From assembly GCA_019326865.1 (NCBI GenBank), contig GCA_019326865.1_4101.1: a DNA stretch of 64,000 nucleotides, one strand, 5' to 3'. The notes beneath the pieces were generated by a model. It had not been told where the DNA came from. It saw nothing but the letters and a program-made list of their open reading frames with translations, and made no database searches. Position 1 is the stretch's first letter. Each line of letters opens with the position of its first letter. This document shows positions 261 to 12,921 of this stretch, one piece after another. The translations under genes were made by a program, and so were the position numbers. Origin of the DNA: a phage.

Positions 261-268
261 AAAATAGT

Positions 269-559: not shown

Positions 560-567
560 AAAAGTAC

Positions 568-595
568 TTGCAAAGTAAATCGAATAAAGTATAAT
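568..595 (+). promoter_or_regulatory. sigma70-like promoter with 5' leader hairpin
   Basis: TTGCAA-16nt-TATAAT, followed by GGGGAGAA..TTCTCCCC stem-loop 608-628 and SD AAGAGGAAA. Confidence 0.55.
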
Positions 596-645
596 ACATT
601 ACATCAAGGGGAGAAAATGGTTCTCCCCACTAAGAGGAAACTAAT

Positions 646-789
646 ATGAAAACTTGTCAATGTGGTAAAAAATCTATTACTGGTTTGAAACGGGGCGTTG
701 CACTTTGCCAGTACCATTATAATTTACAAGTATGGGGTAAAGAATGGGCCGATCAGGTGGAAGCAATAAAGAAAGCAAAAAGTAAGTAA
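646..789 (+). CDS. hypothetical Cys-rich small protein (47 aa)
   Basis: hand-translated MKTCQCGKK...CQYHY...; SD AAGAGGAAA; below ORF-track cutoff. Confidence 0.45.
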   Translation: MKTCQCGKKSITGLKRGVALCQYHYNLQVWGKEWADQVEAIKKAKSK

Positions 790-869
790 AAAATATTATC
801 ACAGTACTATTGACATAGATTGATAGTACTGGCATAATAGATTTTATTAAAACAACTGAGGAAATTAAA
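790..869. repeat. promoter cassette copy 1 (about 80 bp, near-identical copies at 1081 and 3744)
   Basis: AAAATATTATCACAGTACTATTGACATAGATTGATAGTACTGGCATAATAG...GAGGAAATTAAA; contains TTGACA(810)-17-CATAAT. Confidence 0.8.
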
Positions 870-1082
870 ATGGCTATCATTACTAAAATCAAAGTAAACA
901 AAACACTGGTTAAGCTGGAACAAGTGAAAGAAGGTTATAAAGTATCTTGGTGCGGTATGTATCGGACGTTCGCAGATGTAGACGATGCAATCAATTACTA
1001 CACTGACACGGTTAAAAACTTTGTTCGTGCTGATGTGGTTATGGCAGTGGCAACATATAAAGCATCAAAAGAAAGTAAGTAA
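870..1082 (+). CDS. hypothetical protein (70 aa)
   Basis: ORF track; cassette promoter and SD GAGGAAA. Confidence 0.6.
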   Translation: MAIITKIKVNKTLVKLEQVKEGYKVSWCGMYRTFADVDDAINYYTDTVKNFVRADVVMAVATYKASKESK

Positions 1083-1164
1083 AAATATTATCACAGTACT
1101 ATTGACATAGATTGATAGTACTGGCATAATAGATTTTATCAAGACAACTAAGAGGAAATTAAAA
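1081..1164. repeat. promoter cassette copy 2
   Basis: near-identical to 790-869; TTGACA(1101)-17-CATAAT. Confidence 0.8.
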
Positions 1165-1509
1165 ATGGCTAACATCAATACTATAGCAGCACAAAATATC
1201 AACCTGTCTTCTGTTGAAGTTGTACACATTGCCGCCCGGCGTTGGTTCCAGGCGTCTTATGGTAATACGTATTTCTCTTTAACGGTAGATGTTGAAATCA
1301 ATGGCGAATTTATTGAAGTAGTAAACGTGCCGTTCCAATATGGCTACGGGGATCATTTTGACACTGTAGCAATGGAAGAATTTAGCAAGGTTATTAATAT
1401 GGAAGGTAAAGAGTTTTTACGCGGTTCTTATCTTTCCCGTTTTTGCCGTGATAATAATATCACTGTTTATAGTTCTGTTAGTGATGTTAAACGCAAAAAA
1501 GATCTTTAA
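1165..1509 (+). CDS. hypothetical protein (114 aa), paralog of 7526..7849
   Basis: ORF track; shares GNTY, YGYG and C-terminal DVKRKKD with 7526..7849. Confidence 0.65.
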   Translation: MANINTIAAQNINLSSVEVVHIAARRWFQASYGNTYFSLTVDVEINGEFIEVVNVPFQYGYGDHFDTVAMEEFSKVINMEGKEFLRGSYLSRFCRDNNITVYSSVSDVKRKKDL

Positions 1510-1589
1510 TTAGCTTTACTTTATGCAGATACTTTGATATAGTGTCTGCATAGGGGAAAGAAATTAAATCAACTTAAGAGGATAGTAAA

Positions 1590-1859
1590 ATGAAAAATAT
1601 CAGTACTTTAATCGATGCAGGTACACATGTTCGTCGGTCTATGGTTGCAACCAGTTCTACAAAACAAGTAGCGAGCGGTTATCTTGTATTTGTGCACGAT
1701 GGAAAACTCCTGGAACGTTCAATCAATTTTGATGTTAAAAACAATTGCCGTTTTATTATCTTTCGCCGTGAACAATACAAGATCGACATTCCAGCAAAGC
1801 CCATTAGCGGGGCGTACAACGTGCAATCATTGTTTGAGCGTCAACCATACACCTATTAA
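1590..1859 (+). CDS. hypothetical protein (89 aa)
   Basis: ORF track; SD AAGAGGA upstream; overlapping 1684..1911 frame rejected. Confidence 0.6.
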   Translation: MKNISTLIDAGTHVRRSMVATSSTKQVASGYLVFVHDGKLLERSINFDVKNNCRFIIFRREQYKIDIPAKPISGAYNVQSLFERQPYTY

Positions 1860-1910
1860 TCAAAACATCGTTAGCGGTCGATTTAGGCCGCTTATACTGG
1901 GGATTATATA

Positions 1911-2183
1911 ATGAATACTAATCAAGTACTGAATGAGATTGAAAGCATCATTAAACCGATGAAGCGTACTGATGCAATGTTAACACCGGAAGAATGCCGC
2001 CTATATGAGCGTTATAGCGTCGAACAAGTCCAGGAAATGGCTATGGCTATCCCTGCCGTTCAACAGCCTGAGAATGCGTCACAGGACGTTACAGGGGATT
2101 ATAACATCAATCCAGTACTAGGGAAGATTACACCAATTACCGAAGAAGAAAAAGACTACTTAAGCCAGTACTTAAAAGGTTAA
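1911..2183 (+). CDS. hypothetical protein (90 aa)
   Basis: ORF track; tightly packed after previous gene. Confidence 0.55.
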   Translation: MNTNQVLNEIESIIKPMKRTDAMLTPEECRLYERYSVEQVQEMAMAIPAVQQPENASQDVTGDYNINPVLGKITPITEEEKDYLSQYLKG

Positions 2184-2188
2184 TTAAT

Positions 2189-2398
2189 ATGCTTACTGTA
2201 CAGGATAAGATCGACATCTTAAAGGTTAATATGTATGTGATTGATGCAGATCCTGAAAAAGTATTTGCATACGATGATTCTAATCGTAGTCCTTTTTATT
2301 GTAGTCATGTAGTTGGATATGTGCCGTTATCGTATGTTATCGAAAGAGTGGTTGATTCAGCATACAAACATTTTTTAGAAAATAGTACTTGCAATTAG
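2189..2398 (+). CDS. hypothetical protein (69 aa)
   Basis: ORF track. Confidence 0.5.
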   Translation: MLTVQDKIDILKVNMYVIDADPEKVFAYDDSNRSPFYCSHVVGYVPLSYVIERVVDSAYKHFLENSTCN

Positions 2399-2416
2399 TT
2401 TTTAGTACTGTATAAT
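2389..2416 (+). promoter_or_regulatory. sigma70-like promoter with 5' leader hairpin
   Basis: TTGCAA-16nt-TATAAT; GGGGGG..TTCTCCCC hairpin 2429-2448. Confidence 0.5.
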
Positions 2417-2466
2417 GTTTTACATGAAGGGGGGAAATGATTCTCCCCAATAACAGGAGAAACAAA

Positions 2467-2619
2467 ATGAAACAATACAACGCTCGGTTTGATGTTACTA
2501 TCGGCAACGGCAAAGGTCAATTCTCTTTCAGTGCTCGTAAGAGTTATACAGAAAACTTCTTGCGTAATTGTGCACTGACCGCCGCACAAATTAAACATTA
2601 TTTTCAGGCTAAAAAATGA
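2467..2619 (+). CDS. hypothetical small protein (50 aa)
   Basis: start moved from track ATG 2437 (inside hairpin loop) to ATG after SD AGGAGAAAC. Confidence 0.5.
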   Translation: MKQYNARFDVTIGNGKGQFSFSARKSYTENFLRNCALTAAQIKHYFQAKK

Positions 2620-2705
2620 AATCATTAGCTTATTATAGCTCGGCCCTGGTCGGTGCATTGATCGCGGCATTGTTAGTAGCTTATCTATTCTTTATGGTGA
2701 TTTAA
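2616..2705 (+). CDS. hypothetical hydrophobic peptide (29 aa)
   Basis: hand-translated MKSLAYYSSALVGALIAALLVAYLFFMVI; ATGA-coupled to upstream gene; single TM-like helix. Confidence 0.3.
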   Translation: MKSLAYYSSALVGALIAALLVAYLFFMVI

Positions 2706-2843
2706 ATGAATCCTAACGGTATAATTTACAGTACTCCTAAAACTAAAGCAGATAAAGCGGAAGCACGTAAAGCGAAAGTAAAGGAGTACATCAAGCAAGG
2801 TATGACACGAAAGGCGGCGATTCTAAAAGCTAAAAATAAATGA
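2706..2843 (+). CDS. hypothetical basic small protein (45 aa)
   Basis: hand-translated MNPNGIIYSTPKTKADKAEARKAK...; directly follows previous stop. Confidence 0.35.
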   Translation: MNPNGIIYSTPKTKADKAEARKAKVKEYIKQGMTRKAAILKAKNK

Positions 2844-2975
2844 AAAAAAGTGGTTGACTTCGGTCAGCCATTTTGCTATTATATATTCATTGAGAGATAG
2901 CTCACTAGCCCACAGGGTGCGGGAGTGTATCTATTATATAAGTATTGAGTACTGAAAACTATTTTAAAAGTACAT
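2844..2975. repeat. intergenic element R copy 1 (terminator-like hairpin + promoter + conserved core)
   Basis: hairpin TGGTTGAC-TTCG-GTCAGCCA with flanking A/T runs; TTGACT(2854)-17-TATTAT; core CTAGCCCACAGGGTGCGGGAGTGTATC. Confidence 0.75.
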
Positions 2976-2986
2976 GTATAAAGTAC

Positions 2987-3014
2987 TTGCAAACTATCTC
3001 AATTGGCGTATAAT
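2987..3014 (+). promoter_or_regulatory. sigma70-like promoter with 5' leader hairpin
   Basis: TTGCAA-16nt-TATAAT; AGGGGAAA..TTTCCCCT hairpin 3028-3046. Confidence 0.55.
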
Positions 3015-3065
3015 GTTTTACATCGAGAGGGGAAACGGTTTCCCCTAGTAATAAGGAATAAAATC

Positions 3066-3407
3066 ATGACTATTGCAATTGTACAATCTAACTTTGAAAA
3101 TGAAATCATCGCCCAAGCACTGCGTTTAAATGATGGTCGGGCCGAAATTAATTACGGTTTCAATTCAGGCGGTTGTGAAAAATATCAGTACTTTATAACT
3201 GCTGATGGCGGTGTCCTGGGTATTAATACAGTTATTGTAAACATTCAGAAAATTAATTTCAATGATCCAGACGATAGCCAGTTTTACATTGTAGGCGTAG
3301 ACGTGAACTATGAGGATGACTCACTAACTGATGATTACACTGGCGAGAAGTTAGAAAGTGCATACGGTGAAGATGATTATCAGTCAGTACCGGAAGATTT
3401 TGAATAA
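3066..3407 (+). CDS. hypothetical acidic protein (113 aa)
   Basis: start moved from track 3003 to ATG after SD AAGGAAT; acidic C-terminus. Confidence 0.6.
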   Translation: MTIAIVQSNFENEIIAQALRLNDGRAEINYGFNSGGCEKYQYFITADGGVLGINTVIVNIQKINFNDPDDSQFYIVGVDVNYEDDSLTDDYTGEKLESAYGEDDYQSVPEDFE

Positions 3408-3421
3408 TATTAAAAAATAGT

Positions 3422-3449
3422 TTGACAATAGATTATAGTACTGTATAAT
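3422..3449 (+). promoter_or_regulatory. sigma70-like promoter with double leader hairpin
   Basis: TTGACA-16nt-TATAAT; two stem-loops (GGGAAGTTTTAAAAACTTCCC and GGGAGAATAGTTCTCCCC) before SD. Confidence 0.55.
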
Positions 3450-3531
3450 AGTTTACATCAAGGGCGACGGGAAGTTTTAAAAACTTCCCTATAGGGAGAA
3501 TAGTTCTCCCCACTAACAGAGAGAAAACAAA

Positions 3532-3744
3532 ATGGCTAATATCTGCACTGTACTGAAAAATGCAAAACAAGTTTTATTTTCTGATCACGATCATTTAAAC
3601 AAGGATATTACTGGCGTTCGGAATATCAAAGATGTAAAACGTGTTATGGGTATCTATTGCAATATGAAACGTGTCGGCACGTTCGGTAATAAATTTCTAT
3701 ACCAGGCGGGGGATTACAATTTTACACTGACTATCATTAACTAA
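3532..3744 (+). CDS. hypothetical protein (70 aa)
   Basis: ORF track; SD AGAGAGAAA. Confidence 0.6.
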   Translation: MANICTVLKNAKQVLFSDHDHLNKDITGVRNIKDVKRVMGIYCNMKRVGTFGNKFLYQAGDYNFTLTIIN

Positions 3745-3823
3745 AAATATTATCACAGTACTATTGACATAGATTGATAGTACTGGCATAATAGATTTTA
3801 TTAAAACAACTGAGGAAATTAAA
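3744..3823. repeat. promoter cassette copy 3
   Basis: near-identical to 790-869; TTGACA(3764)-17-CATAAT. Confidence 0.8.
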
Positions 3824-4003
3824 ATGGCTATCATCGCAAAAACTGAAATCATCGGCCTGGATTCTATCATCATGACGTTTGAAGATCAAAAAGGTATGTA
3901 TGTAGTTTCCTATGGTGATTATGTTCGGGAGTATGAAACGGTAGACGAAGCCTTTGAAAGTTACATTCGCCAGGTGAATAAAGCATACGACGATTACCGC
4001 TAA
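3824..4003 (+). CDS. hypothetical protein (59 aa)
   Basis: hand-translated MAIIAKTEIIGLD...DDYR; same cassette and N-terminal MAII as 870..1082. Confidence 0.5.
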   Translation: MAIIAKTEIIGLDSIIMTFEDQKGMYVVSYGDYVREYETVDEAFESYIRQVNKAYDDYR

Positions 4004-4030
4004 AATATATTACCAGTACTATCAAAGCTA

Positions 4031-4058
4031 TTGACAACGTTTGATAGTACTGTATAAT
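4031..4058 (+). promoter_or_regulatory. sigma70-like promoter
   Basis: TTGACA-16nt-TATAAT. Confidence 0.55.
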
Positions 4059-4104
4059 AAGTTTTATCAACTGTAGTTAACTTAACAAAAGAGAGAGAAA
4101 CAAA

Positions 4105-4248
4105 ATGATCGCACTGGATTCATTCATCGATGCAGTTCTGGCAAAAACTGGCGAGGATCTGACCGCAGAACAATACGCGATGATCGAGCAATGCCAGCAA
4201 GACGGTAAATCGGTGAAAGATACTGTTAAGATTATCCGCAAGATGTAA
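4105..4248 (+). CDS. hypothetical small protein (47 aa)
   Basis: hand-translated MIALDSFIDAVLAKTGEDL...; SD AGAGAGAGAAA; followed by hairpin AGCCCA..TGGGCT. Confidence 0.45.
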   Translation: MIALDSFIDAVLAKTGEDLTAEQYAMIEQCQQDGKSVKDTVKIIRKM

Positions 4249-4354
4249 GATTATAAGCCCATTAGTTAACGCTGGTGGGCTTTAATCATTTACCCTATAC
4301 AATGCCAGTACTAAACCGTTTATCTCGTTAGAATGCATTACAGGACGTTTAACA

Positions 4355-4552
4355 ATGATTAGCATGAAATCAGTACAAAAACAAATAGAAACATTATCAA
4401 AAATTAAACGTAAACAGTACTCATTAGAATATAATATCAATGGTAACTATCATCTAATGAAAGAGAATAATTTTATCGTCATTGATGAATCATTGCAAAT
4501 TATTAGTATAGTACTGAAAGCATTAATTAATGATAGAAAAAGGTTAAAATAA
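4355..4552 (+). CDS. hypothetical protein (65 aa)
   Basis: ORF track; no strong promoter seen. Confidence 0.4.
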   Translation: MISMKSVQKQIETLSKIKRKQYSLEYNINGNYHLMKENNFIVIDESLQIISIVLKALINDRKRLK

Positions 4553-4809
4553 TGGCAGTAGGATTCGCGAAAGATGGAGCCGAGCAAGATGAGATTAACG
4601 CAGTTATTCAAGCCGCCGTTAACCACGCTAGAAAGCAAATTAACGCACAAATAGAATCACTGATACATTGCCTCGACTGCGGCGATAAAATCCCTGAGAA
4701 TCGCCGACAGGCTGTTAAGGGATGTAAGTACTGCATAACCTGCCAGGAAGATCATGATAGTACTTTTAAACGAGATCCGCGTAATTGTTGGCATAGATCT
4801 ATGAGATAA
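4552..4809 (+). CDS. TraR/DksA-type C4 zinc-finger protein
   Basis: CLDCGDKIPENRRQAVKGCKYCITCQ = C-x2-C-x17-C-x2-C typical of TraR/DksA fingers. Confidence 0.55.
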   Translation: MAVGFAKDGAEQDEINAVIQAAVNHARKQINAQIESLIHCLDCGDKIPENRRQAVKGCKYCITCQEDHDSTFKRDPRNCWHRSMR

Positions 4810-4816
4810 AAAGTAA

Positions 4817-4844
4817 TTGACAGTACTGAAAGATAGTGTATAAT
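4817..4844 (+). promoter_or_regulatory. sigma70-like promoter
   Basis: TTGACA-16nt-TATAAT. Confidence 0.55.
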
Positions 4845-4873
4845 GTTTTATATCTTAACTGAGGATAGAAATC

Positions 4874-5230
4874 ATGGGAATACAACATATCACGCTGACC
4901 ACTGACAATGGCGAGATCACTGGTTATCAAGTACAGGGCAAAGTAGCACAATTGCAGTACTGGTTTGTTAAACGTGGAATCATTGCACCGGATCTTGATT
5001 ATGACCGTGTAGCGTTTATTGATTCTCTTTATGTTGATCCTGAAAGTCGGGGCAATGGTGAAGGTAACGAATTAATGAATGCCTTTATTGATGCCGCCGA
5101 TGATTCAGATTGTATCATTTTAGAATGCGATACGGGAGAAGATAACGCCTTCAATCTTAAAGAATGGTATGAAGGTTTCGGATTCGAAGTACTGATCGAT
5201 AGTGAATATCCTATCATGATTTTATCATAG
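4874..5230 (+). CDS. small GNAT-family acetyltransferase-like protein
   Basis: VDPESRGNGEGNELM resembles GNAT motif A (R-G-x-G-x-G); NAFNLKEWYEGFGF resembles motif B. Confidence 0.5.
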   Translation: MGIQHITLTTDNGEITGYQVQGKVAQLQYWFVKRGIIAPDLDYDRVAFIDSLYVDPESRGNGEGNELMNAFIDAADDSDCIILECDTGEDNAFNLKEWYEGFGFEVLIDSEYPIMILS

Positions 5231-5244
5231 TACTAAAAAAGTAA

Positions 5245-5272
5245 TTGACAGTACTATCAGATAGTATATAAT
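5245..5272 (+). promoter_or_regulatory. sigma70-like promoter with 5' leader hairpin
   Basis: TTGACA-16nt-TATAAT; AGGGGAA..TTCCCCT hairpin 5283-5302. Confidence 0.55.
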
Positions 5273-5319
5273 GTTTTACATAGAGGGGAAACATCTTCCC
5301 CTACTAAGAGGAAAGAAAA

Positions 5320-5508
5320 ATGGAAAACTTATCAAGTATTTTAGTACAAGATGATTTTGGTAATCCTGGAAGTGCTATCATTGTTCGGGGTAATAAAGCA
5401 ACGTTTGTTATTGCTGGTGGACCTGTACAGCGTAGCATTAAAAACAATGCTGTTACTATTAATAATGTACGCTATCGCTTAGATAAAGAATTGATTCATA
5501 AACTGTAA
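5320..5508 (+). CDS. hypothetical protein (62 aa)
   Basis: ORF track; SD AAGAGGAAAG. Confidence 0.55.
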   Translation: MENLSSILVQDDFGNPGSAIIVRGNKATFVIAGGPVQRSIKNNAVTINNVRYRLDKELIHKL

Positions 5509-5535
5509 TATTAATTTAATAGAGGATAACAATAA

Positions 5536-5859
5536 ATGTACATTCATACTACTATCACAAAGGAAGTCCGTTGCCAGTTCGAAAGTATTCCGGGCGTATG
5601 TTTCATCACTGGTACGTTTTCCCCTGGTGATCGTGATAATCCAGTACTGTTACAGTTACGCCATCCATTATGGGATAAAGCATTTGATCTACCGTTGAAT
5701 GAATTCGCAACTACTGCTGAAAAGTACATTAAAAATATTCGCGAGAATGATCGACTATTCATTAATGCTTTTAGTGATTCCGCGTTAAGCGAGATCCACG
5801 GCGTATTGGTTGCAATCATGGAATCAATGGAGAAAACTAAATTCAAACAAGGTGAATAA
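5536..5859 (+). CDS. hypothetical protein (107 aa)
   Basis: ORF track; SD AGAGGATAA. Confidence 0.6.
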   Translation: MYIHTTITKEVRCQFESIPGVCFITGTFSPGDRDNPVLLQLRHPLWDKAFDLPLNEFATTAEKYIKNIRENDRLFINAFSDSALSEIHGVLVAIMESMEKTKFKQGE

Positions 5860-5865
5860 AAACTA

Positions 5866-5893
5866 TTGACAATGTAATCTAGTACTGTATAAT
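5866..5893 (+). promoter_or_regulatory. sigma70-like promoter with 5' leader hairpin
   Basis: TTGACA-16nt-TATAAT; GGGGAGAAATGATTCTCCC hairpin. Confidence 0.55.
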
Positions 5894-5943
5894 AAGTTAC
5901 ATGAAGGGGAGAAATGATTCTCCCTACTAAGAGGAAAGAAAAA

Positions 5944-6156
5944 ATGCAAGGTCAACTAATCGTTCGTAAATGGTCTGATACTAATGAAAAACCGTGGGAT
6001 GTACAATACATCGGACCGGATGGGGTATCACGTTATCAGCCTGGCGTAACGCATAGTACTGAGCAATATGCCGCCGCTCATCGTGAACGCCTGTTAGAAT
6101 CTATGCAACAGGGTTTAGGTGAAAAATTCATTCAAGATCATTGGCTGAAAGATTAA
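5944..6156 (+). CDS. hypothetical protein (70 aa)
   Basis: start moved from track 5914 (ATG in hairpin loop) to ATG after SD AAGAGGAAAG. Confidence 0.55.
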   Translation: MQGQLIVRKWSDTNEKPWDVQYIGPDGVSRYQPGVTHSTEQYAAAHRERLLESMQQGLGEKFIQDHWLKD

Positions 6157-6164
6157 AAAGTACT

Positions 6165-6191
6165 TGTGTAGTATAGAAAATAAAGTATAAT
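6165..6191 (+). promoter_or_regulatory. sigma70-like promoter with 5' leader hairpin
   Basis: TTGTGT-15nt-TATAAT; GGAAGGGGAATAGTTCCCCTCC hairpin. Confidence 0.45.
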
Positions 6192-6242
6192 GTTTAATAC
6201 AGGAAGGGGAATAGTTCCCCTCCTAACAAAAAGGAAAGTAAC

Positions 6243-6416
6243 ATGATTCATGTAGAATTGTCAGTACTGAGAGATTTGTTTTATCGGATGGGTACTACTG
6301 GCGAATATCCGAAGGGTGATACTGCAAAACTTTTTGTATCTCTCGACTTATGGCAACGCGAACAATTAGTAATGTCGTGGCGTAAAGGTAAAGCAGATCG
6401 CGAGGTGAAAGCATGA
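6243..6416 (+). CDS. hypothetical protein (57 aa)
   Basis: hand-translated MIHVELSVLRDLFYRMG...; SD AAAGGAAAG. Confidence 0.4.
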   Translation: MIHVELSVLRDLFYRMGTTGEYPKGDTAKLFVSLDLWQREQLVMSWRKGKADREVKA

Positions 6417-6562
6417 AAGAATTTTTATTCGAAGTAGTTTTTATTGGTGTAAGTAGTCACCAATTGATTCGCTCAAGTGGTTACAATGTTTGCCAGGCAT
6501 GGAATAACATTAAACAAATGTACCCGAACGCTATCACATATCGCAACCCAAAACAAGTTTAA
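6413..6562 (+). CDS. hypothetical protein (49 aa)
   Basis: hand-translated MKEFLFEVVFIGVSSHQ...; ATGA-coupled to upstream ORF. Confidence 0.35.
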   Translation: MKEFLFEVVFIGVSSHQLIRSSGYNVCQAWNNIKQMYPNAITYRNPKQV

Positions 6563-6570
6563 AAATAATT

Positions 6571-6705
6571 AAAAAAAGGATTGACTTCGGTCAGTCCTTT
6601 TTGCTATTATATATTCATTGAGAGATAGCTCACTAGCCCACAGGGTGCGGGAGTGTATCTATTATATGTTGGTGGGTGTATTATCTAGTACTGAAAACTA
6701 TTTGA
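6571..6705. repeat. intergenic element R copy 2
   Basis: hairpin GGATTGAC-TTCG-GTCAGTCC; TTGACT(6581)-18-TATTAT; conserved core as in copy 1. Confidence 0.75.
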
Positions 6706-6715
6706 TAAAAAGTAC

Positions 6716-6862: not shown

Positions 6863-6894
6863 AATCACATCAACTACTGATAAGGAAACATAAA

Positions 6895-7170
6895 ATGCGG
6901 GTTCTTCTGACAGCTAACGAAATCGAGCAAGTACTTACTACTAACCTGGAACAATGGAAACGTGAAGCAGATATCCAGGCGGTTCAATTGTTAAATGAGA
7001 AGTTAACGCCGGATGATTTAAGTAAGATTGTAGATCCTCAATTCTACGAAGATATTCACGACACCGCGTTAAGCGTCGAGGATGTACTAGATAAACACTA
7101 CATTGATACTAATTTACAGGGTTACGGTCGTAAAAATTTTATTACTATTCACGACATTTACAATAATTAA
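6895..7170 (+). CDS. hypothetical protein (91 aa)
   Basis: ORF track; SD AAGGAAAC. Confidence 0.6.
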   Translation: MRVLLTANEIEQVLTTNLEQWKREADIQAVQLLNEKLTPDDLSKIVDPQFYEDIHDTALSVEDVLDKHYIDTNLQGYGRKNFITIHDIYNN

Positions 7171-7173
7171 GTA

Positions 7174-7201
7174 TTGACAAAGTATCTTAGTACTGTATAA
7201 T
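7174..7201 (+). promoter_or_regulatory. sigma70-like promoter with 5' leader hairpin
   Basis: TTGACA-16nt-TATAAT; GAGGGGAATGGTTCCCCTC hairpin; cassette repeated at 7443. Confidence 0.6.
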
Positions 7202-7256
7202 AGTTTACATCAAGTGAGGGGAATGGTTCCCCTCCTAACAAAGAGAGAAATAAAAA

Positions 7257-7439
7257 ATGGCTAAGTGCACTATCTGTAAGAAAGAAATAGTATTAGTTCC
7301 AAGTGCCCGTGAGCGTGCAGCTCGGTTCGGTGGCAAAGCGTCAGACTATACAAAAATGTTTACTACTCATGCAAATTGCCAGGTAGCAAAACGTTCACAA
7401 GAAAGCGTAGAATTAATGCGTAAACTTTCCAAAAAATAA
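7257..7439 (+). CDS. hypothetical Cys-containing protein (60 aa)
   Basis: ORF track; CTIC...H..C possible zinc ligands. Confidence 0.55.
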   Translation: MAKCTICKKEIVLVPSARERAARFGGKASDYTKMFTTHANCQVAKRSQESVELMRKLSKK

Positions 7440-7442
7440 GTA

Positions 7443-7470
7443 TTGACAAAGTATCTTAGTACTGTATAAT
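7443..7470 (+). promoter_or_regulatory. sigma70-like promoter with 5' leader hairpin
   Basis: TTGACA-16nt-TATAAT; near-identical to 7174 cassette. Confidence 0.6.
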
Positions 7471-7525
7471 AGATTACATCAAGTGAGGGGAAACGGTTCC
7501 CCTCCTAACAAAGAGAGAAATAAAA

Positions 7526-7849
7526 ATGACTATGATCCTTGCCCAGAAAGTAGAACTGAAAATTGTAACTTCCTTTGACATTAAAGTTAATCGCTGGACT
7601 GATCGGAACGGTAATACTTACCACTCTTGCTACGTGTCTGCATTGATTGGTGATCGTTGGGAAGACTTGGGACACGAAACCTTTACATACGGTTACGGTA
7701 CGCAAGGCGAATACACTGGTTTGGAGATCATTAAAGAAACCGTTATAGGTTTCAACCCGAAAGAAAAAGTTATTCACCGCATCGAAAAAGAGATTAATAA
7801 AGAAATAACAGTTCGCTACTACGATGTAAAACGTAAGAAAGACATGTAA
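7526..7849 (+). CDS. hypothetical protein (107 aa), paralog of 1165..1509
   Basis: ORF track; shared YGYG and C-terminal DVKRKKD. Confidence 0.65.
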   Translation: MTMILAQKVELKIVTSFDIKVNRWTDRNGNTYHSCYVSALIGDRWEDLGHETFTYGYGTQGEYTGLEIIKETVIGFNPKEKVIHRIEKEINKEITVRYYDVKRKKDM

Positions 7850-7871
7850 TAGAATCCATTTAAAGTACTAT

Positions 7872-7900
7872 TTGACATTACACAGATAGTACTTTATAAT
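7872..7900 (+). promoter_or_regulatory. sigma70-like promoter
   Basis: TTGACA-17nt-TATAAT. Confidence 0.55.
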
Positions 7901-7935
7901 AGACTCTAACTTGTAGTATTAACTTAACTAATAGG

Positions 7936-8340
7936 ATGTATACCATGATTACTAAATTCTACGCTACCCGTGAAGCTGCCCGTATTGTTGCACGCGAGGA
8001 AGGAGCGGCATTTAAAGACATGGGCAAAGATGCACCGAAAGGCCAACGCTGGAGCGTACAGTTCAAAGAAATCTCTGATATTGTGAATTCACCTGAACCA
8101 GTACTGACAGCAGCAGAACAGAAGAAAGCTGATGAACTGGCGGCAATTCTTAACGCTCAAGATGAATTCGTCGAGGGTGCTGATATCCAGGTTGTAGTAA
8201 ATTCGAATGCATGGACTCACGCGGATCATCTGGCTAACCTGAAGCGTCCAAGCGTATTGATTCGCAACCATAAAGAGATCCGACACGACCGCAAGGGCAA
8301 CCGTGTTACTGTATACAGTAAACGCCGCCAGGTTATCTAA
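7936..8340 (+). CDS. hypothetical protein (134 aa)
   Basis: ORF track; alternative start ATG 7945; followed by terminator. Confidence 0.6.
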   Translation: MYTMITKFYATREAARIVAREEGAAFKDMGKDAPKGQRWSVQFKEISDIVNSPEPVLTAAEQKKADELAAILNAQDEFVEGADIQVVVNSNAWTHADHLANLKRPSVLIRNHKEIRHDRKGNRVTVYSKRRQVI

Positions 8341-8362
8341 TACCTAGCAGTACTAACAACAC

Positions 8363-8388
8363 GGCGGGATCTGTTCCCGCCTTTTTTA
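8363..8388 (+). terminator. rho-independent terminator
   Basis: GGCGGGA-TCTGT-TCCCGCC followed by TTTTTT. Confidence 0.7.
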
Positions 8389-8402
8389 CAGGATAAACTA
8401 AA

Positions 8403-8657
8403 ATGATTAAGGTAAAACTATCTAAAGATAATATCTTGCGGGTACACTATAAAGCCCCTCAGAGAATCATCACAAAGGCCGTACAGCTTGCGAATGAGTT
8501 TATTAATGGTAATCTATTACCTAGGAAGTTAAGCAACGGAAAACTGCGTGTAATCGATGTAGACACTAACAACAGAATAGTAATAGAGAATACCGGAAAG
8601 ATAAACCTATATGAACACCAACAATATAATAAGAAAATAAAACTAATTAGTCGTTGA
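8403..8657 (+). CDS. hypothetical protein (84 aa)
   Basis: ORF track. Confidence 0.55.
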   Translation: MIKVKLSKDNILRVHYKAPQRIITKAVQLANEFINGNLLPRKLSNGKLRVIDVDTNNRIVIENTGKINLYEHQQYNKKIKLISR

Positions 8658-8711
8658 CAGTACTCAAATGTTTTAGTACTATATATCTATACCAACACGG
8701 AGAGAAACAAA

Positions 8712-8930
8712 ATGAAATTATCTAAAATCGAAAAGAAAACTATTGACGTAGCTATCCAACATGGTTACACCTTTCGTAATGATTTACATTTTACCAATTT
8801 TCAACAAGGGTATCGTACTATTAAAAAACTAATTGACAAAGGTTTATTAGTTAAAGTAGACAACGGCAACGGCGTTGAATATCAACCAACACAGGACGCA
8901 TTTAATTTTAAGAAATATAATATTATCTAA
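8712..8930 (+). CDS. hypothetical protein (72 aa), possible winged-helix DNA binder
   Basis: ORF track; promoter TTGACA 8654; IKKLIDKGLLVKVDNGNG wing-like segment (weak). Confidence 0.5.
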   Translation: MKLSKIEKKTIDVAIQHGYTFRNDLHFTNFQQGYRTIKKLIDKGLLVKVDNGNGVEYQPTQDAFNFKKYNII

Positions 8931-8987
8931 TTGACAGTACTCAAATGTTTTAGTACTATATCTATACCAACACAGGAAAAAAACAAA

Positions 8988-9572
8988 ATGCGTAATTATA
9001 CTAAATTCATCCGTACACTGTCAGAAATGGAAACCAACAAAGAGATCTTGACAGCTTGTCGGTTAGCTGGTCTGGAGATCATCGGTGCGGGGTCTTCCCG
9101 TATTGTATTCGCTTTAAATGATCGGTTAGTGATTAAGGTCGCGAATTGTGATGCGGGTGTAGAACAAAATGAAACAGAATGTAAAGTATGGAATTTTTTA
9201 GATTATGACCGACCTCAGTTGAAACAGTTCTTTGCTAAAGTACATATGCATTTAAGCGATCCTGATAATATGTTTATTGTTATGGATCGGTTGAGTACTG
9301 CAAGTAAAGGCAGTGTAAAGCACGTTAACGCGTGCAACGAATTAAAGTACAATATTAAACGTAATGCAATCGAACGCCAGCACCGCTTTGCTGATGCACT
9401 ACAACACGTCGATGATACATTATCAACACTAACGATCAGAGATATCAGAAAACAGAATATCGGACAGGATCGAAATGGACTGATTAAAGTACTTGATTAT
9501 GGTTTAACCCGCAATATCTGGAATCAGTACTATAAAAAGCGTGATGTAAAAGCCGTAACTATAACACGATAA
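8988..9572 (+). CDS. compact protein-kinase-like protein (194 aa)
   Basis: start moved from track TTG 8931; Gly-loop IGAGSSRIVF, VIKV lysine, catalytic-loop-like RDIRKQN, DFG-like LDYG. Confidence 0.5.
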   Translation: MRNYTKFIRTLSEMETNKEILTACRLAGLEIIGAGSSRIVFALNDRLVIKVANCDAGVEQNETECKVWNFLDYDRPQLKQFFAKVHMHLSDPDNMFIVMDRLSTASKGSVKHVNACNELKYNIKRNAIERQHRFADALQHVDDTLSTLTIRDIRKQNIGQDRNGLIKVLDYGLTRNIWNQYYKKRDVKAVTITR

Positions 9573-9580
9573 AAAAGATT

Positions 9581-9705
9581 AAAAAAGGGATTGACTCCGG
9601 TCAGTCCCTTTGCTATTATATATTCATTGAGAGATAGCTCACTAGCCCACAGGGTGCGGGAGTGTATCTATTATATAAGTATTGAGTACTGAAAACTATT
9701 TTTAA
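9581..9705. repeat. intergenic element R copy 3
   Basis: hairpin GGGATTGAC-TCCG-GTCAGTCCC; TTGACT(9591)-17-TATTAT; conserved core. Confidence 0.75.
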
Positions 9706-9713
9706 AAAGTACT

Positions 9714-9740
9714 TGCATTGTACTTAGATTCAAGTATAAT
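9714..9740 (+). promoter_or_regulatory. sigma70-like promoter with 5' leader hairpin
   Basis: TTGCAT-15nt-TATAAT; imperfect GGGGGAACGTCCC hairpin; SD AAGGAAT. Confidence 0.55.
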
Positions 9741-9787
9741 GTTTTATATCGAGAGGGGGAACGTCCCTGATAATAAGGAATAAAATC

Positions 9788-10009
9788 ATGACTACAATGA
9801 CTTGCATTTACGCTTCCAATCTTCTGAATGATGCTGTTTTTAATGTTGATTCAGAATATCAATGTTATCGGGATGAAAATAAAAAAGTTTTTGTAGTTGA
9901 TAATAATGGTTTCCATATTGAATTACAATCCGGCTTCACTGGTGTTGATGGTAAATCAGTATGGGGCGTACAGGATGATAAAGGCACATATCATTTTAAA
10001 CGTAATTAA
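9788..10009 (+). CDS. hypothetical protein (73 aa)
   Basis: ORF track; SD AAGGAAT. Confidence 0.6.
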   Translation: MTTMTCIYASNLLNDAVFNVDSEYQCYRDENKKVFVVDNNGFHIELQSGFTGVDGKSVWGVQDDKGTYHFKRN

Positions 10010-10012
10010 GTA

Positions 10013-10040
10013 TTGACAAAGTATCTTAGTACTGTATAAT
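10013..10040 (+). promoter_or_regulatory. sigma70-like promoter with double leader hairpin
   Basis: TTGACA-16nt-TATAAT; same double hairpin as at 3460-3510. Confidence 0.6.
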
Positions 10041-10124
10041 AGTTTACATCAAGGGCAACGGGAAGTTTTAAAAACTTCCCTATAGGGAGAACAGTTCTCC
10101 CCGATACTAAAAGGAAACAAAAAT

Positions 10125-10397
10125 ATGTCTAGCTACTCCGCTACTATGATCATTAAAGATATGAACGGTAATCCTACTGCTGCTGGTGGATCATTTGGAA
10201 ACATTAACTTAGATGGTCGGTTAACCATGCAATCAGCCATCAATGCAGCGAAAGAAGTTTTTAAGAATGAATGCACTGTAAGTAAGCTGGATTATATGGG
10301 ATTCGCTATCGAGAAAACTAATCGTTTTGTGAACTACAAAAATCCACTGATGATTGATACTAACCTGAAAGCTAACGAAGTGGAATACTTATTATGA
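10125..10397 (+). CDS. hypothetical protein (90 aa)
   Basis: ORF track; SD AAAGGAAAC. Confidence 0.6.
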   Translation: MSSYSATMIIKDMNGNPTAAGGSFGNINLDGRLTMQSAINAAKEVFKNECTVSKLDYMGFAIEKTNRFVNYKNPLMIDTNLKANEVEYLL

Positions 10398-10585
10398 CAG
10401 TTGAAGAAGTTAAAAAAGTACTGGCAGTTCTACGCTATCATAACCATTGCAAGGTGAAGAATGATTCTGATTATCTTGATTCATCCCTTGAGGAAGACAC
10501 ATTAAACGCAATAAGCTATATGCAAACATTATTAAAACGTATGACCGAAAAGAATAGACCGGACTATATCGGAAATAAAATTTAA
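10394..10585 (+). CDS. hypothetical protein (63 aa)
   Basis: ORF track; ATGA-coupled. Confidence 0.5.
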   Translation: MTVEEVKKVLAVLRYHNHCKVKNDSDYLDSSLEEDTLNAISYMQTLLKRMTEKNRPDYIGNKI

Positions 10586-10593
10586 AAAGTACT

Positions 10594-10620
10594 TGCATTG
10601 TAGTTAGATTAACGTATAAT
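10594..10620 (+). promoter_or_regulatory. sigma70-like promoter with 5' leader hairpin
   Basis: TTGCAT-15nt-TATAAT; GAGGGGAAATGGTTTCCCCTC hairpin. Confidence 0.55.
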
Positions 10621-10671
10621 GTTTTATATCGAGAGGGGAAATGGTTTCCCCTCAAGTCCAGGAGATACACA

Positions 10672-10935
10672 ATGAACACTATCGAAATCACTATCAATGC
10701 TCACGTATACGACAACGTAGTACTGCAAACTACTATGACCGCTAATGATACCAGTACTTTGCGGAATACTGTTATTAGTGCTGTATGTGCCGCTATCGGT
10801 GATGTCGCCCTGGAAAATGCAAAACACGTAAACGATGGTTTCACTATGTGCAAGCGTGATAACGCAAAACATATCATCGTAGAAGGTTACGGCGGTGTAG
10901 AATATAATGTTTATATGAAAAAAGTACTTGCATAA
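10672..10935 (+). CDS. hypothetical protein (87 aa)
   Basis: ORF track; SD CAGGAGA; 3' end overlaps next promoter. Confidence 0.6.
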   Translation: MNTIEITINAHVYDNVVLQTTMTANDTSTLRNTVISAVCAAIGDVALENAKHVNDGFTMCKRDNAKHIIVEGYGGVEYNVYMKKVLA

Positions 10936-10955
10936 TAACTAAAACAAAGTATAAT
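10928..10955 (+). promoter_or_regulatory. sigma70-like promoter with 5' leader hairpin
   Basis: TTGCAT-16nt-TATAAT; GGGGGAGATATCCTCCCCC hairpin. Confidence 0.55.
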
Positions 10956-11002
10956 GTTTTGCATAGGGGGAGATATCCTCCCCCACTAAAAGGAGTAATA
11001 AA

Positions 11003-11227
11003 ATGGCTAACTTTGATGAACTGATGCGGGAAGTAGCTAACCTGGCAGAAGAGAAGAAATCATTCGATTCTATCTATAACACCTCTTACCGTGATTCAGT
11101 ACTGGCATGTAACCAGGATCAAAAAGATGAACTAATCGCCACCTATTATGAAGCATGGAAGTACTACCGACAATGGGAGAAAGAAGAAAGTGAGTCTACC
11201 ATTGACGGCCTCAATAATCTAATCTAA
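11003..11227 (+). CDS. hypothetical protein (74 aa)
   Basis: ORF track; SD AAAGGAG. Confidence 0.6.
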   Translation: MANFDELMREVANLAEEKKSFDSIYNTSYRDSVLACNQDQKDELIATYYEAWKYYRQWEKEESESTIDGLNNLI

Positions 11228-11245
11228 AGTTTTATTTCAGTACTA

Positions 11246-11274
11246 TTGACATAGATTGATAGTACTGATATGAT
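11246..11274 (+). promoter_or_regulatory. sigma70-like promoter
   Basis: TTGACA-17nt-TATGAT; partial copy of the 790 cassette. Confidence 0.45.
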
Positions 11275-11302
11275 AACTTTACTATCTACAAGGGGAAACA
11301 TC

Positions 11303-11560
11303 ATGGAACAATTCACACAATATCGGGTAAATCCTCAAGCTATGGCATACGTAGAAGACCATAAAACGTTACCAGTACAAACACCAATTAAAGGCCATAT
11401 CTATCGTGCAATGTCATGGAATCCGGCCCAGTATGGCTATAACACCGTAGCCGTGGGCATGTACTGCGGCAATGGTGAATGGTTTGATCCTAACAATCCG
11501 ATTGCACTTGATAGTACTGAAAAAATGAAATGGGCCGACTACATCGAAGATATTTCATAA
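11303..11560 (+). CDS. hypothetical protein (85 aa)
   Basis: start moved from track 11270 (ATG inside -10 region) to ATG after SD AAGGGGAAA. Confidence 0.55.
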   Translation: MEQFTQYRVNPQAMAYVEDHKTLPVQTPIKGHIYRAMSWNPAQYGYNTVAVGMYCGNGEWFDPNNPIALDSTEKMKWADYIEDIS

Positions 11561-11567
11561 AAATTAT

Positions 11568-11595
11568 TTGACAGTACTAACCAGTAATGTATAAT
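11568..11595 (+). promoter_or_regulatory. sigma70-like promoter with 5' leader hairpin
   Basis: TTGACA-16nt-TATAAT; GCGGGGGAATAGTTCTCCCGC hairpin. Confidence 0.55.
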
Positions 11596-11650
11596 GTTTT
11601 ACATAGAGCGGGGGAATAGTTCTCCCGCCAATAGTTTGGAGTAAAACATT

Positions 11651-11851
11651 ATGTCTATCGCTATCGCCCTGGTCGAAGTACTGAAAGAAGCTAAAGCCAA
11701 CCTTATCGATGTACAGATTAAGGAATTGCAAAATGGCTTAATCGGCTGTACTTGTACCGCTGGTGGCCCGTCAGACTATCGGGAATTCGAATCACTTGAA
11801 TCGATGGTCCGTTATCTTACAATCATCGTAGAAGATTGGAGAATCATCTAA
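11651..11851 (+). CDS. hypothetical protein (66 aa)
   Basis: ORF track; SD TTTGGAG. Confidence 0.55.
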   Translation: MSIAIALVEVLKEAKANLIDVQIKELQNGLIGCTCTAGGPSDYREFESLESMVRYLTIIVEDWRII

Positions 11852-11865
11852 CAAAAAAAAAGAAT

Positions 11866-12005
11866 AAAAAGGGATTGACTCCGGTCAGTCCCTTTGCTAT
11901 TATATACGCATAGACAAAAACTAGCCCACAGGGTGCATAGGTGTATCTTAAATATATAGTTAATAACGGTGAGTAACTATCTGCTGGTGGGGTGAAAACT
12001 ATTAA
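11866..12005. repeat. intergenic element R copy 4 (diverged)
   Basis: same hairpin and TTGACT(11875)-17-TATTAT; central part diverged, keeps CTAGCCCACAGGGTGC. Confidence 0.7.
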
Positions 12006-12014
12006 TAAAAAGTA

Positions 12015-12043
12015 TTGACAAAGTATATCAGTACTGCAATAAT
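12015..12043 (+). promoter_or_regulatory. sigma70-like promoter
   Basis: TTGACA-17nt-AATAAT. Confidence 0.45.
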
Positions 12044-12097
12044 GTATCTCGTAGGGCGGCAATGGTGCGACGGTCCACAAAGTTAGGAGATTCACAA

Positions 12098-12430
12098 ATG
12101 AGTACTTCAATCGCTATCGTTAAAGCTTTCATCCGTACCAACGTTTCATCTGTATTCATTGACGGACTGGATCGGGAAGTAGAATACTCAATCATTATCG
12201 CACAAACTGCAAACGGTGCTCGGTACATCCTTAATAATAGTGAAGCAAATCACTACTACTTCACTAAAGCCACTGGCTTTAAACGCATCGATGCTGATGT
12301 AGTATACGCTAAGATGAATAAGCTGGTAGACAAGATTAACGCGAAAGGTACTATCGATTTACAGTACTGGACCGAAACCGATCCAGAATATGGATCTCAC
12401 CGCTACCTGAATCCAGGTATTAAAATGTAA
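12098..12430 (+). CDS. hypothetical protein (110 aa)
   Basis: start moved from track 12062 to ATG after SD AGGAGA. Confidence 0.6.
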   Translation: MSTSIAIVKAFIRTNVSSVFIDGLDREVEYSIIIAQTANGARYILNNSEANHYYFTKATGFKRIDADVVYAKMNKLVDKINAKGTIDLQYWTETDPEYGSHRYLNPGIKM

Positions 12431-12437
12431 AAAGTAC

Positions 12438-12465
12438 TTGCATAGTACTTAGATTTAAGTATAAT
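12438..12465 (+). promoter_or_regulatory. sigma70-like promoter with 5' leader hairpin
   Basis: TTGCAT-16nt-TATAAT; GAGGGGGAAATGGTTCTCCCTCC hairpin. Confidence 0.55.
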
Positions 12466-12519
12466 GTTTTTCATAGAGAGGGGGAAATGGTTCTCCCTCC
12501 TAAATTAAGGAGTTTTATC

Positions 12520-12921
12520 ATGACCTTCTCAATCACTTCCTTCGCTGACGTTTTAGTACTGGCTCGGACTTTCGGCAAAGCTGGCCTTGAGCACGCTGTA
12601 AGTAATGGTTATATGCACCCGGAATATTGCCGCATTATCGGTAGCTGTAAACGTTGGGCCGTGTCCCGTAATATTGAGATTGAAAACTTCAATGATGGTA
12701 ACAACGAATATACAGTTGATGCAGTATTCGAATCCGTTGATCTCGGCGGTATCTATAACACTAACCTGAATGATGTGCGTATTGTTCGCACGGGGTTCGG
12801 TGCTTATGATGTATCTATCCGTGAAGCGATGGACAAGGGATACATTAGCAAGGATCAGTTAGCTTACATTATGCAGCAGACTAAAGAGCGTAATGAAGCA
12901 CGCACTATCTTAGGTCTGTAA
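12520..12921 (+). CDS. hypothetical protein (133 aa)
   Basis: start moved from track 12487 (ATG in hairpin loop) to ATG after SD AAGGAG. Confidence 0.6.
   Translation: MTFSITSFADVLVLARTFGKAGLEHAVSNGYMHPEYCRIIGSCKRWAVSRNIEIENFNDGNNEYTVDAVFESVDLGGIYNTNLNDVRIVRTGFGAYDVSIREAMDKGYISKDQLAYIMQQTKERNEARTILGL

Follow-up and report, generated by a model that had tools for sequence, protein, structure and literature searches.

A Promoter, Leader Hairpin and Shine-Dalgarno Cassette Recurs in the Putative Early Region of an Asteriusvirus-Like Jumbo Phage

Genomic Setting and Occurrence of the Cassette

The stretch of phage DNA analyzed here (64,000 nucleotides (nt); contig GCA_019326865.1_4101.1 of assembly GCA_019326865.1), hereafter called the window, carries between positions 560 and 12,520 a recurrent cassette in which a sigma-70-type promoter is followed by a G/C-rich hairpin, a Shine-Dalgarno (SD) sequence and the ATG of a small gene. 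The window is 90–94% identical, in a mosaic manner, to the Asteriusvirus jumbo myophages 121Q, PBECO4, phAPEC6 and ph0011. Asteriusvirus (121Q/PBECO4-like; Rak2-like jumbo phages) comprises E. coli phages with genomes of about 350 kb. Rak2/121Q-like jumbo phages rank with the largest coliphages, and the cassette offers a handle on the so far undescribed regulation of their early genes. In the literature searched on promoters and hairpins of 121Q, PBECO4, RaK2, CBB and PA5oct, generic sigma-70 motifs were reported, but no leader hairpin.

Positions 1–13,000 form an array of tiny plus-strand genes, the majority of them with their own sigma-70-type promoter, and in several related records this region lies near the left genome end or within the direct terminal repeat. 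The layout of the array and RNA-seq work on the relative PA5oct, for which use of the host RNA polymerase was described, suggest that these genes are early genes. Few products of the array were recognizable, namely a DksA/TraR-type zinc finger protein (4552–4809), a GNAT acetyltransferase (4874–5230) and a weakly matching protein-kinase-like protein (8988–9572). Scans of the whole window with Rfam (at the gathering score) and for tRNA genes gave no matches.

Between 560 and 12,520, a canonical hairpin follows 14 promoters, being doubled after two of them, and a decayed copy follows one more, which amounts to 15 genes with a cassette. No leader-type hairpin was found in the remaining 51 kb of the window. 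Positions 1–13,000 contain 24 strong GC-rich hairpin loci (16 in leaders, seven terminator-like and one intragenic), as compared to 1.5 ± 1.2 loci of any kind, with a maximum of 6, in dinucleotide shuffles of the same region. When a covariance model built from the hairpins was run unfiltered over the 64 kb, 12 matches with E < 0.01 were obtained, all on the plus strand and all between 604 and 12,502. The sole further match with E < 1 was a true terminator at 8359–8385, and nothing with E < 1 was found beyond 12.5 kb. A first-pass annotation of this DNA had proposed the cassette for at least 13 early genes. Its count was borne out by the 14 canonical copies and the decayed one, and a hairpin was present at all 12 coordinates that it had listed (cassettes 1–3, 5–9 and 12–15 below). 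While every entry of that list was real, the two double-hairpin leaders (3469–3489 with 3494–3510 and 10060–10080 with 10085–10101) and the decayed copy near 9750–9772 had been overlooked.

Promoter Class and Position of the Hairpin

Of the 19 promoters that combine a 16-nt spacer with a perfect TATAAT, 14 are followed by the hairpin, as compared to none of the 14 promoters with a spacer of 17–18 nt (Fisher p = 1.5e-5). The latter are TG-extended CATAAT/GATAAT or TTGACT...TATTAT types. A spacer of 16 or 17 nt, as initially annotated, is therefore too wide a definition, since every hairpin-bearing promoter has 16 nt. Upstream of the TTGACA/TTGCAA-16-TATAAT promoters, an A-rich tract (AAAAAGTA..) is present. 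The cassette defines one promoter class, with about 25 early transcription units per genome.

In the window, the hairpins start 10–14 nt past the consensus TATAAT, i.e., somewhat farther downstream than the distance of up to about 10 nt assumed in the first-pass annotation, and end 16–22 nt ahead of the ATG. Among 93 promoter-bearing hits, the stem starts 11–12 nt after the -10 hexamer in 80 and 13–14 nt after it in nine; in the other four, which represent the double-hairpin form, it starts after 30–42 nt. The distance from stem to ATG is evenly spread over 16–22 nt. Since the distance from the -10 hexamer is fixed and that to the ATG is variable, the element is anchored on the promoter side. 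By analogy with the T5 N25 promoter, whose sequence TATAAT-AGATT.. we take to resemble the start region of the cassette promoters, +1 is most likely the 6th–8th nt after TATAAT, the A of a conserved CAT. With this start, the G-run would begin at about +6 and the hairpin 6–9 nt into the presumed transcript, which agrees with the earlier placement of the hairpin in the 5' leader of the mRNA. The predicted unpaired 5' tail is 5–7 nt in about 70% of the leaders and 1–3 nt in about 13–25%, depending on whether the presumed +1 is the 6th or the 8th nt.

The stems comprise 7–10 bp, with predicted energies of -11 to -16 kcal/mol. Purines make up 95% of the 5' arm (66/66 hairpins), and none of the leaders has a G-run without a partner C-run. 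The loops are 3–5 nt long and of at least 12 sequence kinds (TAG, TGG, CGG, ATGA, ACATC and others). The SD and the AUG are unpaired in every predicted fold. In 31 of 72 distinct hairpins (43%), an additional AUG reaches from the final A of the 5' arm into the loop. These loop ATGs were considered as functional upstream open reading frames (ORFs), which was rejected because the ATG exchanges with ACG between orthologous cassettes. That they mislead ORF calling had been noted before and is evident from the ORF list, where genes start at 2437, 5914 and 12487 instead of 2467, 5944 and 12520. The cassette therefore corrects at least three start-codon calls in the window.

Selection on an RNA Fold

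Leaders were picked by promoter sequence alone (TTGnnn-N16-TATAAT-RNNTTNYAT) from the window and the homologous regions of ph0011, BF17, 121Q and JNE01, which yielded 99 unique leaders from five genomes. Of these, 85 fold at -8 kcal/mol or below, and the median is -12.9 kcal/mol. Since a first MAFFT alignment brought different loop lengths out of register, it was not counted and was replaced by a seed alignment of fixed geometry and an alignment to the covariance model. In the fixed-geometry alignment of 31 sequences, 91.8% of the cells were paired as compared to 79% after shuffling, and 38 double-sided changes were counted as compared to 12; neither value was reached in any of 500 shuffles. 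Sliding the partners by 1–3 columns reduced pairing to 47–69% of the cells. Similarly, the covariance-model alignment of 83 distinct rows showed 91.5% versus 79.5% pairing and 99 versus 37.6 double-sided changes (0/500 shuffles), with slid controls reaching at most 77%. G-C, A-U, C-G, U-A and G-U pairs were all seen at single stem positions. The apical GAA...UUC and one G-C pair are nearly invariant, while the remaining stem pairs covary. The shuffle z-scores of single hairpins are modest (about -1.4 to -3) because G-runs and C-runs pair even when shuffled; the case therefore lies in recurrence, position and covariation.

The mismatches are strand-biased. In a strand-neutral search over eight stem positions of the 99 leaders, 34 G·T/T·G were found as compared to 16 A·C/C·A, and at pairs 3–6 from the loop 16 as compared to 2. 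This excess indicates that the coding-sense strand is the strand required to fold. The covariance model likewise scores the plus strand 10–20 bits above the minus strand. These results bear on the idea that the element acts as DNA, in which case it could be the operator at which a dimeric repressor turns off early promoters, or could form a recombination-promoting cruciform. A roadblock repressor would indeed be expected at the location of the inverted repeat (+6 to +28), and crossovers at the promoter-early stem-loops (PeSLs) of phage RB49, which are compared below, mapped in or next to the loop. However, the distance from G-run to C-run varies from 15 to 21 nt, which is unsuited to a dimeric DNA-binding protein, the stems covary instead of keeping a fixed recognition sequence, and with G·T far above A·C the complementary strand would fold worse. 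The operator was rejected on account of the variable spacing and the strand-biased mismatches, and a role of the element as DNA is regarded as very improbable. Compensatory changes together with the wobble bias of the coding strand thus indicate that the selected object is an RNA hairpin in the 5' leader and neither a DNA operator nor a terminator. Covariance analysis had been named in the first-pass annotation as a check of the hairpins, and its outcome, with compensatory changes and a coding-sense fold under selection, was positive.

Individual Cassettes

All cassettes are on the plus strand, and promoters are given as -35 hexamer, spacer length and -10 hexamer. Cassette 1 (568–648) starts with TTGCAA-16-TATAAT (568–595), followed by the hairpin GGGGAGAA/aatgg/TTCTCCCC at 608–628, the SD AAGAGGAAA and the ATG at 646; it scores 22.2 bits with the covariance model and folds at -13.8 kcal/mol. 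The same promoter type is present in cassettes 2 and 3. In cassette 2 (2389–2469), the hairpin GGGGGGAA/atga/TTCTCCCC at 2429–2448 contains one G·U, and the loop ATG at 2437 misleads ORF calling ahead of the ATG at 2467. Cassette 3 (2987–3068; 35.2 bits) carries AGGGGAAA/cgg/TTTCCCCT at 3028–3046 and its ATG at 3066.

Cassette 4 (3422–3534; TTGACA-16-TATAAT) is a double form, in which an extra hairpin, GGGAAGTTT/taa/AAACTTCCC at 3469–3489, precedes the canonical GGGAGAA/tag/TTCTCCC at 3494–3510 (ATG 3532; -21 kcal/mol, z -3.2). Its orthologues in BF17 and JNE01 have the single-hairpin form. Cassettes 5 and 6 share the promoter type of cassette 4. The former (5245–5322) has AGGGGAA/acatc/TTCCCCT at 5284–5302 and its ATG at 5320, the latter (5866–5946) has GGGGAGAA/atga/TTCTCCCT at 5905–5924 with a basal G·U, a loop ATG at 5914 and the ATG at 5944. 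Cassette 7 (6164–6245; 33.1 bits) is driven by TTGTGT-16-TATAAT and consists of AGGGGAA/tag/TTCCCCT at 6205–6221 and the ATG at 6243. Cassettes 8 (7174–7259) and 9 (7443–7528), both with TTGACA-16-TATAAT, share the arms GAGGGGAA and TTCCCCTC around the loops tgg (7216–7234; ATG 7257) and acgg (7485–7504; ATG 7526), respectively.

Cassette 10 (9713–9790; TTGCAT-16-TATAAT; ATG 9788) is the decayed copy, with a remnant GGGGGAACGTCCC at about 9753–9767 and a covariance-model E value of 1.1; its orthologues possess an intact AGGGGGAA/tgg/TTCTCCCT hairpin. Cassette 11 (10013–10127; TTGACA-16-TATAAT; ATG 10125) is the second double form, with hairpins at 10060–10080 and 10085–10101, and the same gene in ph0011 has one hairpin only. 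Two cassettes with TTGCAT-16-TATAAT follow: cassette 12 (10593–10674; 34.9 bits) with GAGGGGAAA/tgg/TTTCCCCTC at 10633–10653 and the ATG at 10672, and cassette 13 (10928–11005) with GGGGGAG/atatc/CTCCCCC at 10966–10984 and the ATG at 11003. In cassette 14 (11568–11653; TTGACA-16-TATAAT; 35.6 bits), the second pair of GCGGGGGAA/tag/TTCTCCCGC (11608–11628) is C-G, one pair is G·U, and the ATG is at 11651. Cassette 15 (12438–12522; TTGCAT-16-TATAAT) has GAGGGGGAA/atgg/TTCTCCCTC at 12478–12499, a loop ATG at 12487 and the ATG at 12520.

An alternative pairing of the 3' arm and flank (CTCC) with the SD (AAGGAG) is possible in cassette 15, at 12497–12512. The 3' arm and flank read CCCCTCCTAA, which is near the 16S rRNA 3' end, in four cassettes, but not universally among the cassettes. 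A related variant without ORF occupies 6716–6833 on the plus strand, where a promoter of the hairpin class is followed by a structured leader of about 85 nt (GGGAAC...TTCCC closed by CAGG...CCTG); the next promoter starts at 6834. This leader is kept in ph0011, BF17, 121Q and JNE01 and also, along with the gene downstream of it, in Justusliebigvirus muut. It may represent a small RNA or else a cassette that has decayed.

Relation to PeSL Cassettes and Genome Mosaicism

PeSL cassettes have been described in the T4-like phages RB49/phi1, in T4/PST and in KVP40/nt-1; they consist of an A/T-rich tract, a sigma-70 promoter, a G(n)-loop-C(n) stem-loop and an SD with ATG, and they were proposed to terminate upstream transcription and to mediate the modular shuffling of ORFans (Arbiol et al. 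2010, PMC2839356; Comeau et al. 2014, PMC4122927). The cassette of the window shares with them the A/T-rich tract and near-consensus sigma-70 early promoter, the G(n)-loop-C(n) stem-loop tolerating G·T pairs, the SD and ATG of the downstream gene at the 3' end, and the recurrence between small ORFans of a hyperplastic early region, at boundaries of insertions, deletions and replacements. It differs in lineage, the phages being Rak2-like jumbo phages and not T4-like, and in the position of the stem-loop. In PeSLs, this lies upstream of the start site, within the A/T-rich region or the spacer, over the -35 or the -10 hexamer, or just before the promoter or +1. When RB49 was checked directly, GGGGATC-acc-GATCCCC stem-loops were found between the -35 and -10 hexamers or over the latter, outside their own transcript. 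In contrast, the Asteriusvirus hairpin lies 10–14 nt downstream of the -10 hexamer (11–14 nt in 89/93 hits), within its own transcript, and lacks a T tail. Judged by its sequence features, the cassette is best filed as an early regulatory cassette of the PeSL kind with the stem-loop shifted into the 5' leader, which for this phage group is without description in the literature searched.

Comparison of the window with four relatives showed that 28 of 49 ends of homology blocks fall in cassettes, which cover about 22% of the sequence (p = 8.5e-8), and the majority of the other ends are no more than about 15 nt away from one. Between two cassettes, whole genes are present in some phages and absent in others, e.g., at 4874–5230, 5536–5859 and 10672–10935, and a gene preceded by a hairpin cassette in one phage may have the hairpin-less type in another. 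The cassette explains the swapping of small ORFan genes between phages. In BF17, the acetyltransferase gene is absent and two promoter cassettes bound the deletion. Copies of the cassette were found in unrelated Justusliebigvirus phages (about 146 kb), e.g., Justusliebigvirus muut, and in more distant Rak2-like phages of Salmonella, Klebsiella and Erwinia. A pattern scan of IMG/VR gave 34 stretches, among which true cassettes were confined to contigs of 348–366 kb, one of 109 kb and one of 153 kb. The 109-kb contig is a fragment of a Rak2-like phage, and the single hits were unrelated hairpins.

Given this likeness, the hairpin might be a PeSL-type attenuator or terminator that damps read-through from upstream, the cassette being mainly a recombination module. 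The RB49/phi1 PeSLs have the same G(n)-loop-C(n) sequence, one of their stem-loops cut the expression of downstream lacZ as strongly as rrnB T1 (PMC2839356), and the location at mosaic breakpoints would fit. However, none of the leader hairpins is followed by a T tail, the sequences behind them being of the kind ACTAAG, CCTAAC and AGTAAT, while canonical T-tailed terminators exist in the same region at 2847, 6573, 8363, 9584 and 11868. The ARNold terminators of the G17 record follow stop codons, and none of them coincides with a leader hairpin. Moreover, a hairpin downstream of its own promoter would also damp the message to which it belongs and would offer the promoter no shield from occlusion, unlike the RB49 stem-loop in the -35/-10 spacer. 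Attenuation of this kind is improbable, and the terminator was rejected on sequence, as the leader hairpins are absent from the terminator scan that lists the five true ones.

Two further types of elements were observed in the region. Three near-identical hairpin-less promoter cassettes of about 68 nt are present at 783–850, 1075–1142 and 3737–3804. The gene at 870–1082 is flanked by two of them, while ph0011, the closest relative, lacks the gene and has a single cassette, a pattern that resembles an indel between direct repeats. A composite element occurs in four copies (2847–2940, 6573–6668, 9584–9680 and 11868–11961). In it, the stem of a terminator hairpin with UUCG/UCCG loop and T tail holds the -35 hexamer TTGACT of a TGnTATTAT promoter, and a conserved box, RRCCCAYNGGGTGCR...GTATCT, follows without ORF (23 copies across six sources). 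No covariation was detected in the box downstream of the TTGACT promoters. With its terminator overlapping a promoter, this composite element is, by its architecture, a textbook PeSL.

Comparison with Other Leader Elements

As in T7 phi10, ompA hp1 and papA, a short stable hairpin would, with the presumed start site, open the message, and the SD lies free downstream; those messages are highly expressed. The T7 phi10 leader (GGGAGACCACAACGGUUUCCC) is particularly close, with a G-first hairpin on the initial transcribed GGGAGA, the partner UUUCCC and a fold of -16 kcal/mol, although T7 RNA polymerase transcribes it and not the host sigma-70 RNA polymerase. By this likeness, the hairpin might be a classical 5'-terminal stabilizer which, in the manner of ompA, papA and T7 gene 10, prevents the action of RppH as well as 5'-end-dependent access of RNase E. 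A stable hairpin near the predicted 5' end in 85 of 99 leaders and the tightly fixed distance to the promoter are in line with such a role, as are the extra flanking pairs that, in about a quarter of the leaders, would bring the helix to 1–3 nt from a start at the 8th nt. However, the stems of T7 phi10, ompA and papA lie 0–4 nt from the 5' end, whereas 5–7 nt are predicted to be unpaired in most leaders here. According to Emory et al. in 1992, protection of the 5' end from RNase E and RppH reportedly needs a stem about 2–4 nt from it. To our knowledge, E. coli has no 5' exonuclease to guard against. Furthermore, stabilization leaves unexplained why the purine arm comes first. RNase E rapidly cuts substrates with 4 unpaired nt before a stem, and a simple stem-loop in the 5' untranslated region gives negligible protection, including that from scanning (PMC11194081), while RppH requires only 2–3 unpaired nt (PMC3997798). 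Because of the tail of 5–7 nt, and since orthogonal stem-loops barely hinder RNase E, classical 5'-end protection fits poorly, and we consider it unlikely as the function of the hairpin.

Small cis-acting RNA hairpins just past early promoters are also known from the boxB of lambda nut and from HK022 put. They differ from the hairpin described here in that the loop of boxB is a conserved purine pentaloop of GNRA-like type and boxB is partnered by boxA, as compared to variable loops here, put is a two-stem structure of about 70 nt, and both occur once per operon and not before nearly every gene. A lambda-type nut site (boxA with boxB) was not matched in the leaders, where the upstream sequence is ACATCAA/ACATCGAG and not boxA. 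Nevertheless, the hairpin might be a recognition tag for a phage or host RNA-binding factor that co-regulates the promoter class by timed destruction, translational shut-off or loading of an antitermination factor. The RegB/RegA logic of T4 exemplifies the destruction and shut-off of early messages, and lambda nut and HK022 put exemplify antitermination loading. A tag would be consistent with the almost invariant GAA...UUC apex and G-C pair in stems that otherwise covary, with the confinement to one promoter class, with the nut- and put-like location just past the start site and with the five intrinsic terminators inside the array. However, the loops vary in length and sequence, and loop bases are what most hairpin-binding proteins read. 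In addition, a boxA-like partner motif is lacking, antitermination is not needed because each unit past a terminator has its own promoters, no RNA-binding protein was recognized among the early genes scanned, and the unrelated Justusliebigvirus muut, which also has the cassette, would need the same factor. A tag in general therefore has a minor chance in our assessment. In a specific form, which we rate as quite unlikely, a phage factor would read the tag on all immediate-early transcripts from 16-nt-spacer promoters, so that the class would be destroyed, silenced or made terminator-resistant together, with the hairpin-less extended -10 promoters on another schedule. If true, this would be a post-transcriptional code for temporal classes in Rak2-like jumbo phages.

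Proposed Function of the Leader Hairpin

Three facts have to be explained jointly: the RNA pairing is selected, the purine arm comes first from about +6, and only the tightest promoters carry the element. We propose, with a probability of roughly 0.4, that the unit is a self-contained, exchangeable early-expression cassette, in which the hairpin would mask an escape-friendly start within the leader and act as an insulator or stabilizer. The recurrence, the fixed position, the coding-strand covariation, the lack of a T tail and the placement at mosaic breakpoints were observed; the mechanism as a whole is what we infer. The cassette is ordered as an A-rich tract, a near-consensus sigma-70 promoter with 16-nt spacer, a conserved ..TTACAT.. 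start region, a purine/G-rich segment from about the presumed +6, its pyrimidine complement, 4–10 nt, the SD and the ATG.

First, the G/A-rich 5' arm would be placed ahead in order to double as the initial transcribed sequence of a very tightly binding promoter, where a purine-rich start with GG/GA near +6 may favor promoter escape. The T5 PN25-type early promoters are likewise very strong sigma-70 promoters; an A-rich tract lies upstream of them, and their purine-rich initial transcribed sequence governs escape. T5 N25, however, has no complementary pyrimidine tract and, hence, no leader hairpin. The productive yield was shown to correlate with purine content, GG/GA near +6 aids escape, and stable early RNA:DNA hybrids may help (PMC5961368); it is on the basis of this work that the 5' arm is read as an escape-friendly initial transcribed sequence. 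Second, the 3' arm would fold the G-rich segment away once it is out of the polymerase. This may prevent the SD-like segment, whose final A forms an AUG with the loop in 43% of the distinct hairpins, from serving as a false ribosome site or from pairing with the cargo gene, while the true SD would stay open and the compact 5' structure may extend the life of the message. Because the true SD is open in every predicted fold, the module is expected to act alike before any cargo gene, and since it carries its own context, recombination could set it before any small gene.

Several points weigh against this proposal. The position of +1 was assigned from promoter geometry, and the escape argument draws on analogy with work on T5 N25, lambda PR and lacUV5. 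With 5–7 unpaired nt at the 5' end, the expected protection from RppH and RNase E is weak. Since the 17–18-nt-spacer promoters and 14 of the 99 leaders of 16-nt-spacer promoters lack the hairpin, it is dispensable for expression. The invariant GAA...UUC apex would find no explanation in a role that is purely structural. Finally, the compared sequences are related by descent and gene conversion, so that the shuffle statistics overstate independence; the slid controls preserve this relatedness and point in the same direction as the shuffles. If the proposal is correct, it would show how sigma-70 promoters of consensus strength handle a G-rich initial transcribed sequence and would provide a compact, context-independent expression module for synthetic biology. 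No major paradigm would be altered even then.

Other Features of the Window

From 13419 to about 20909, the window contains a tandem array of about 30 small genes (64–90 aa) with overlapping stop and start codons. All of them are paralogues with a motif of the LGTNYQE..YV type and lack promoters of their own.

In the window, 202 copies of the palindrome AGTACT, often as CAGTACTG, were counted as compared to about 17 expected, i.e., a 12-fold excess. In loci of other Rak2-like jumbo phages, the excess is 15–22-fold, and it is absent in Justusliebigvirus muut and RB49. In the literature searched, no paper tied this motif to jumbo phages. Intragenic copies are present in all three reading frames, which argues for selection on DNA. 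In many early promoters, AGTACT overlaps the -35 hexamer or sits in the spacer.

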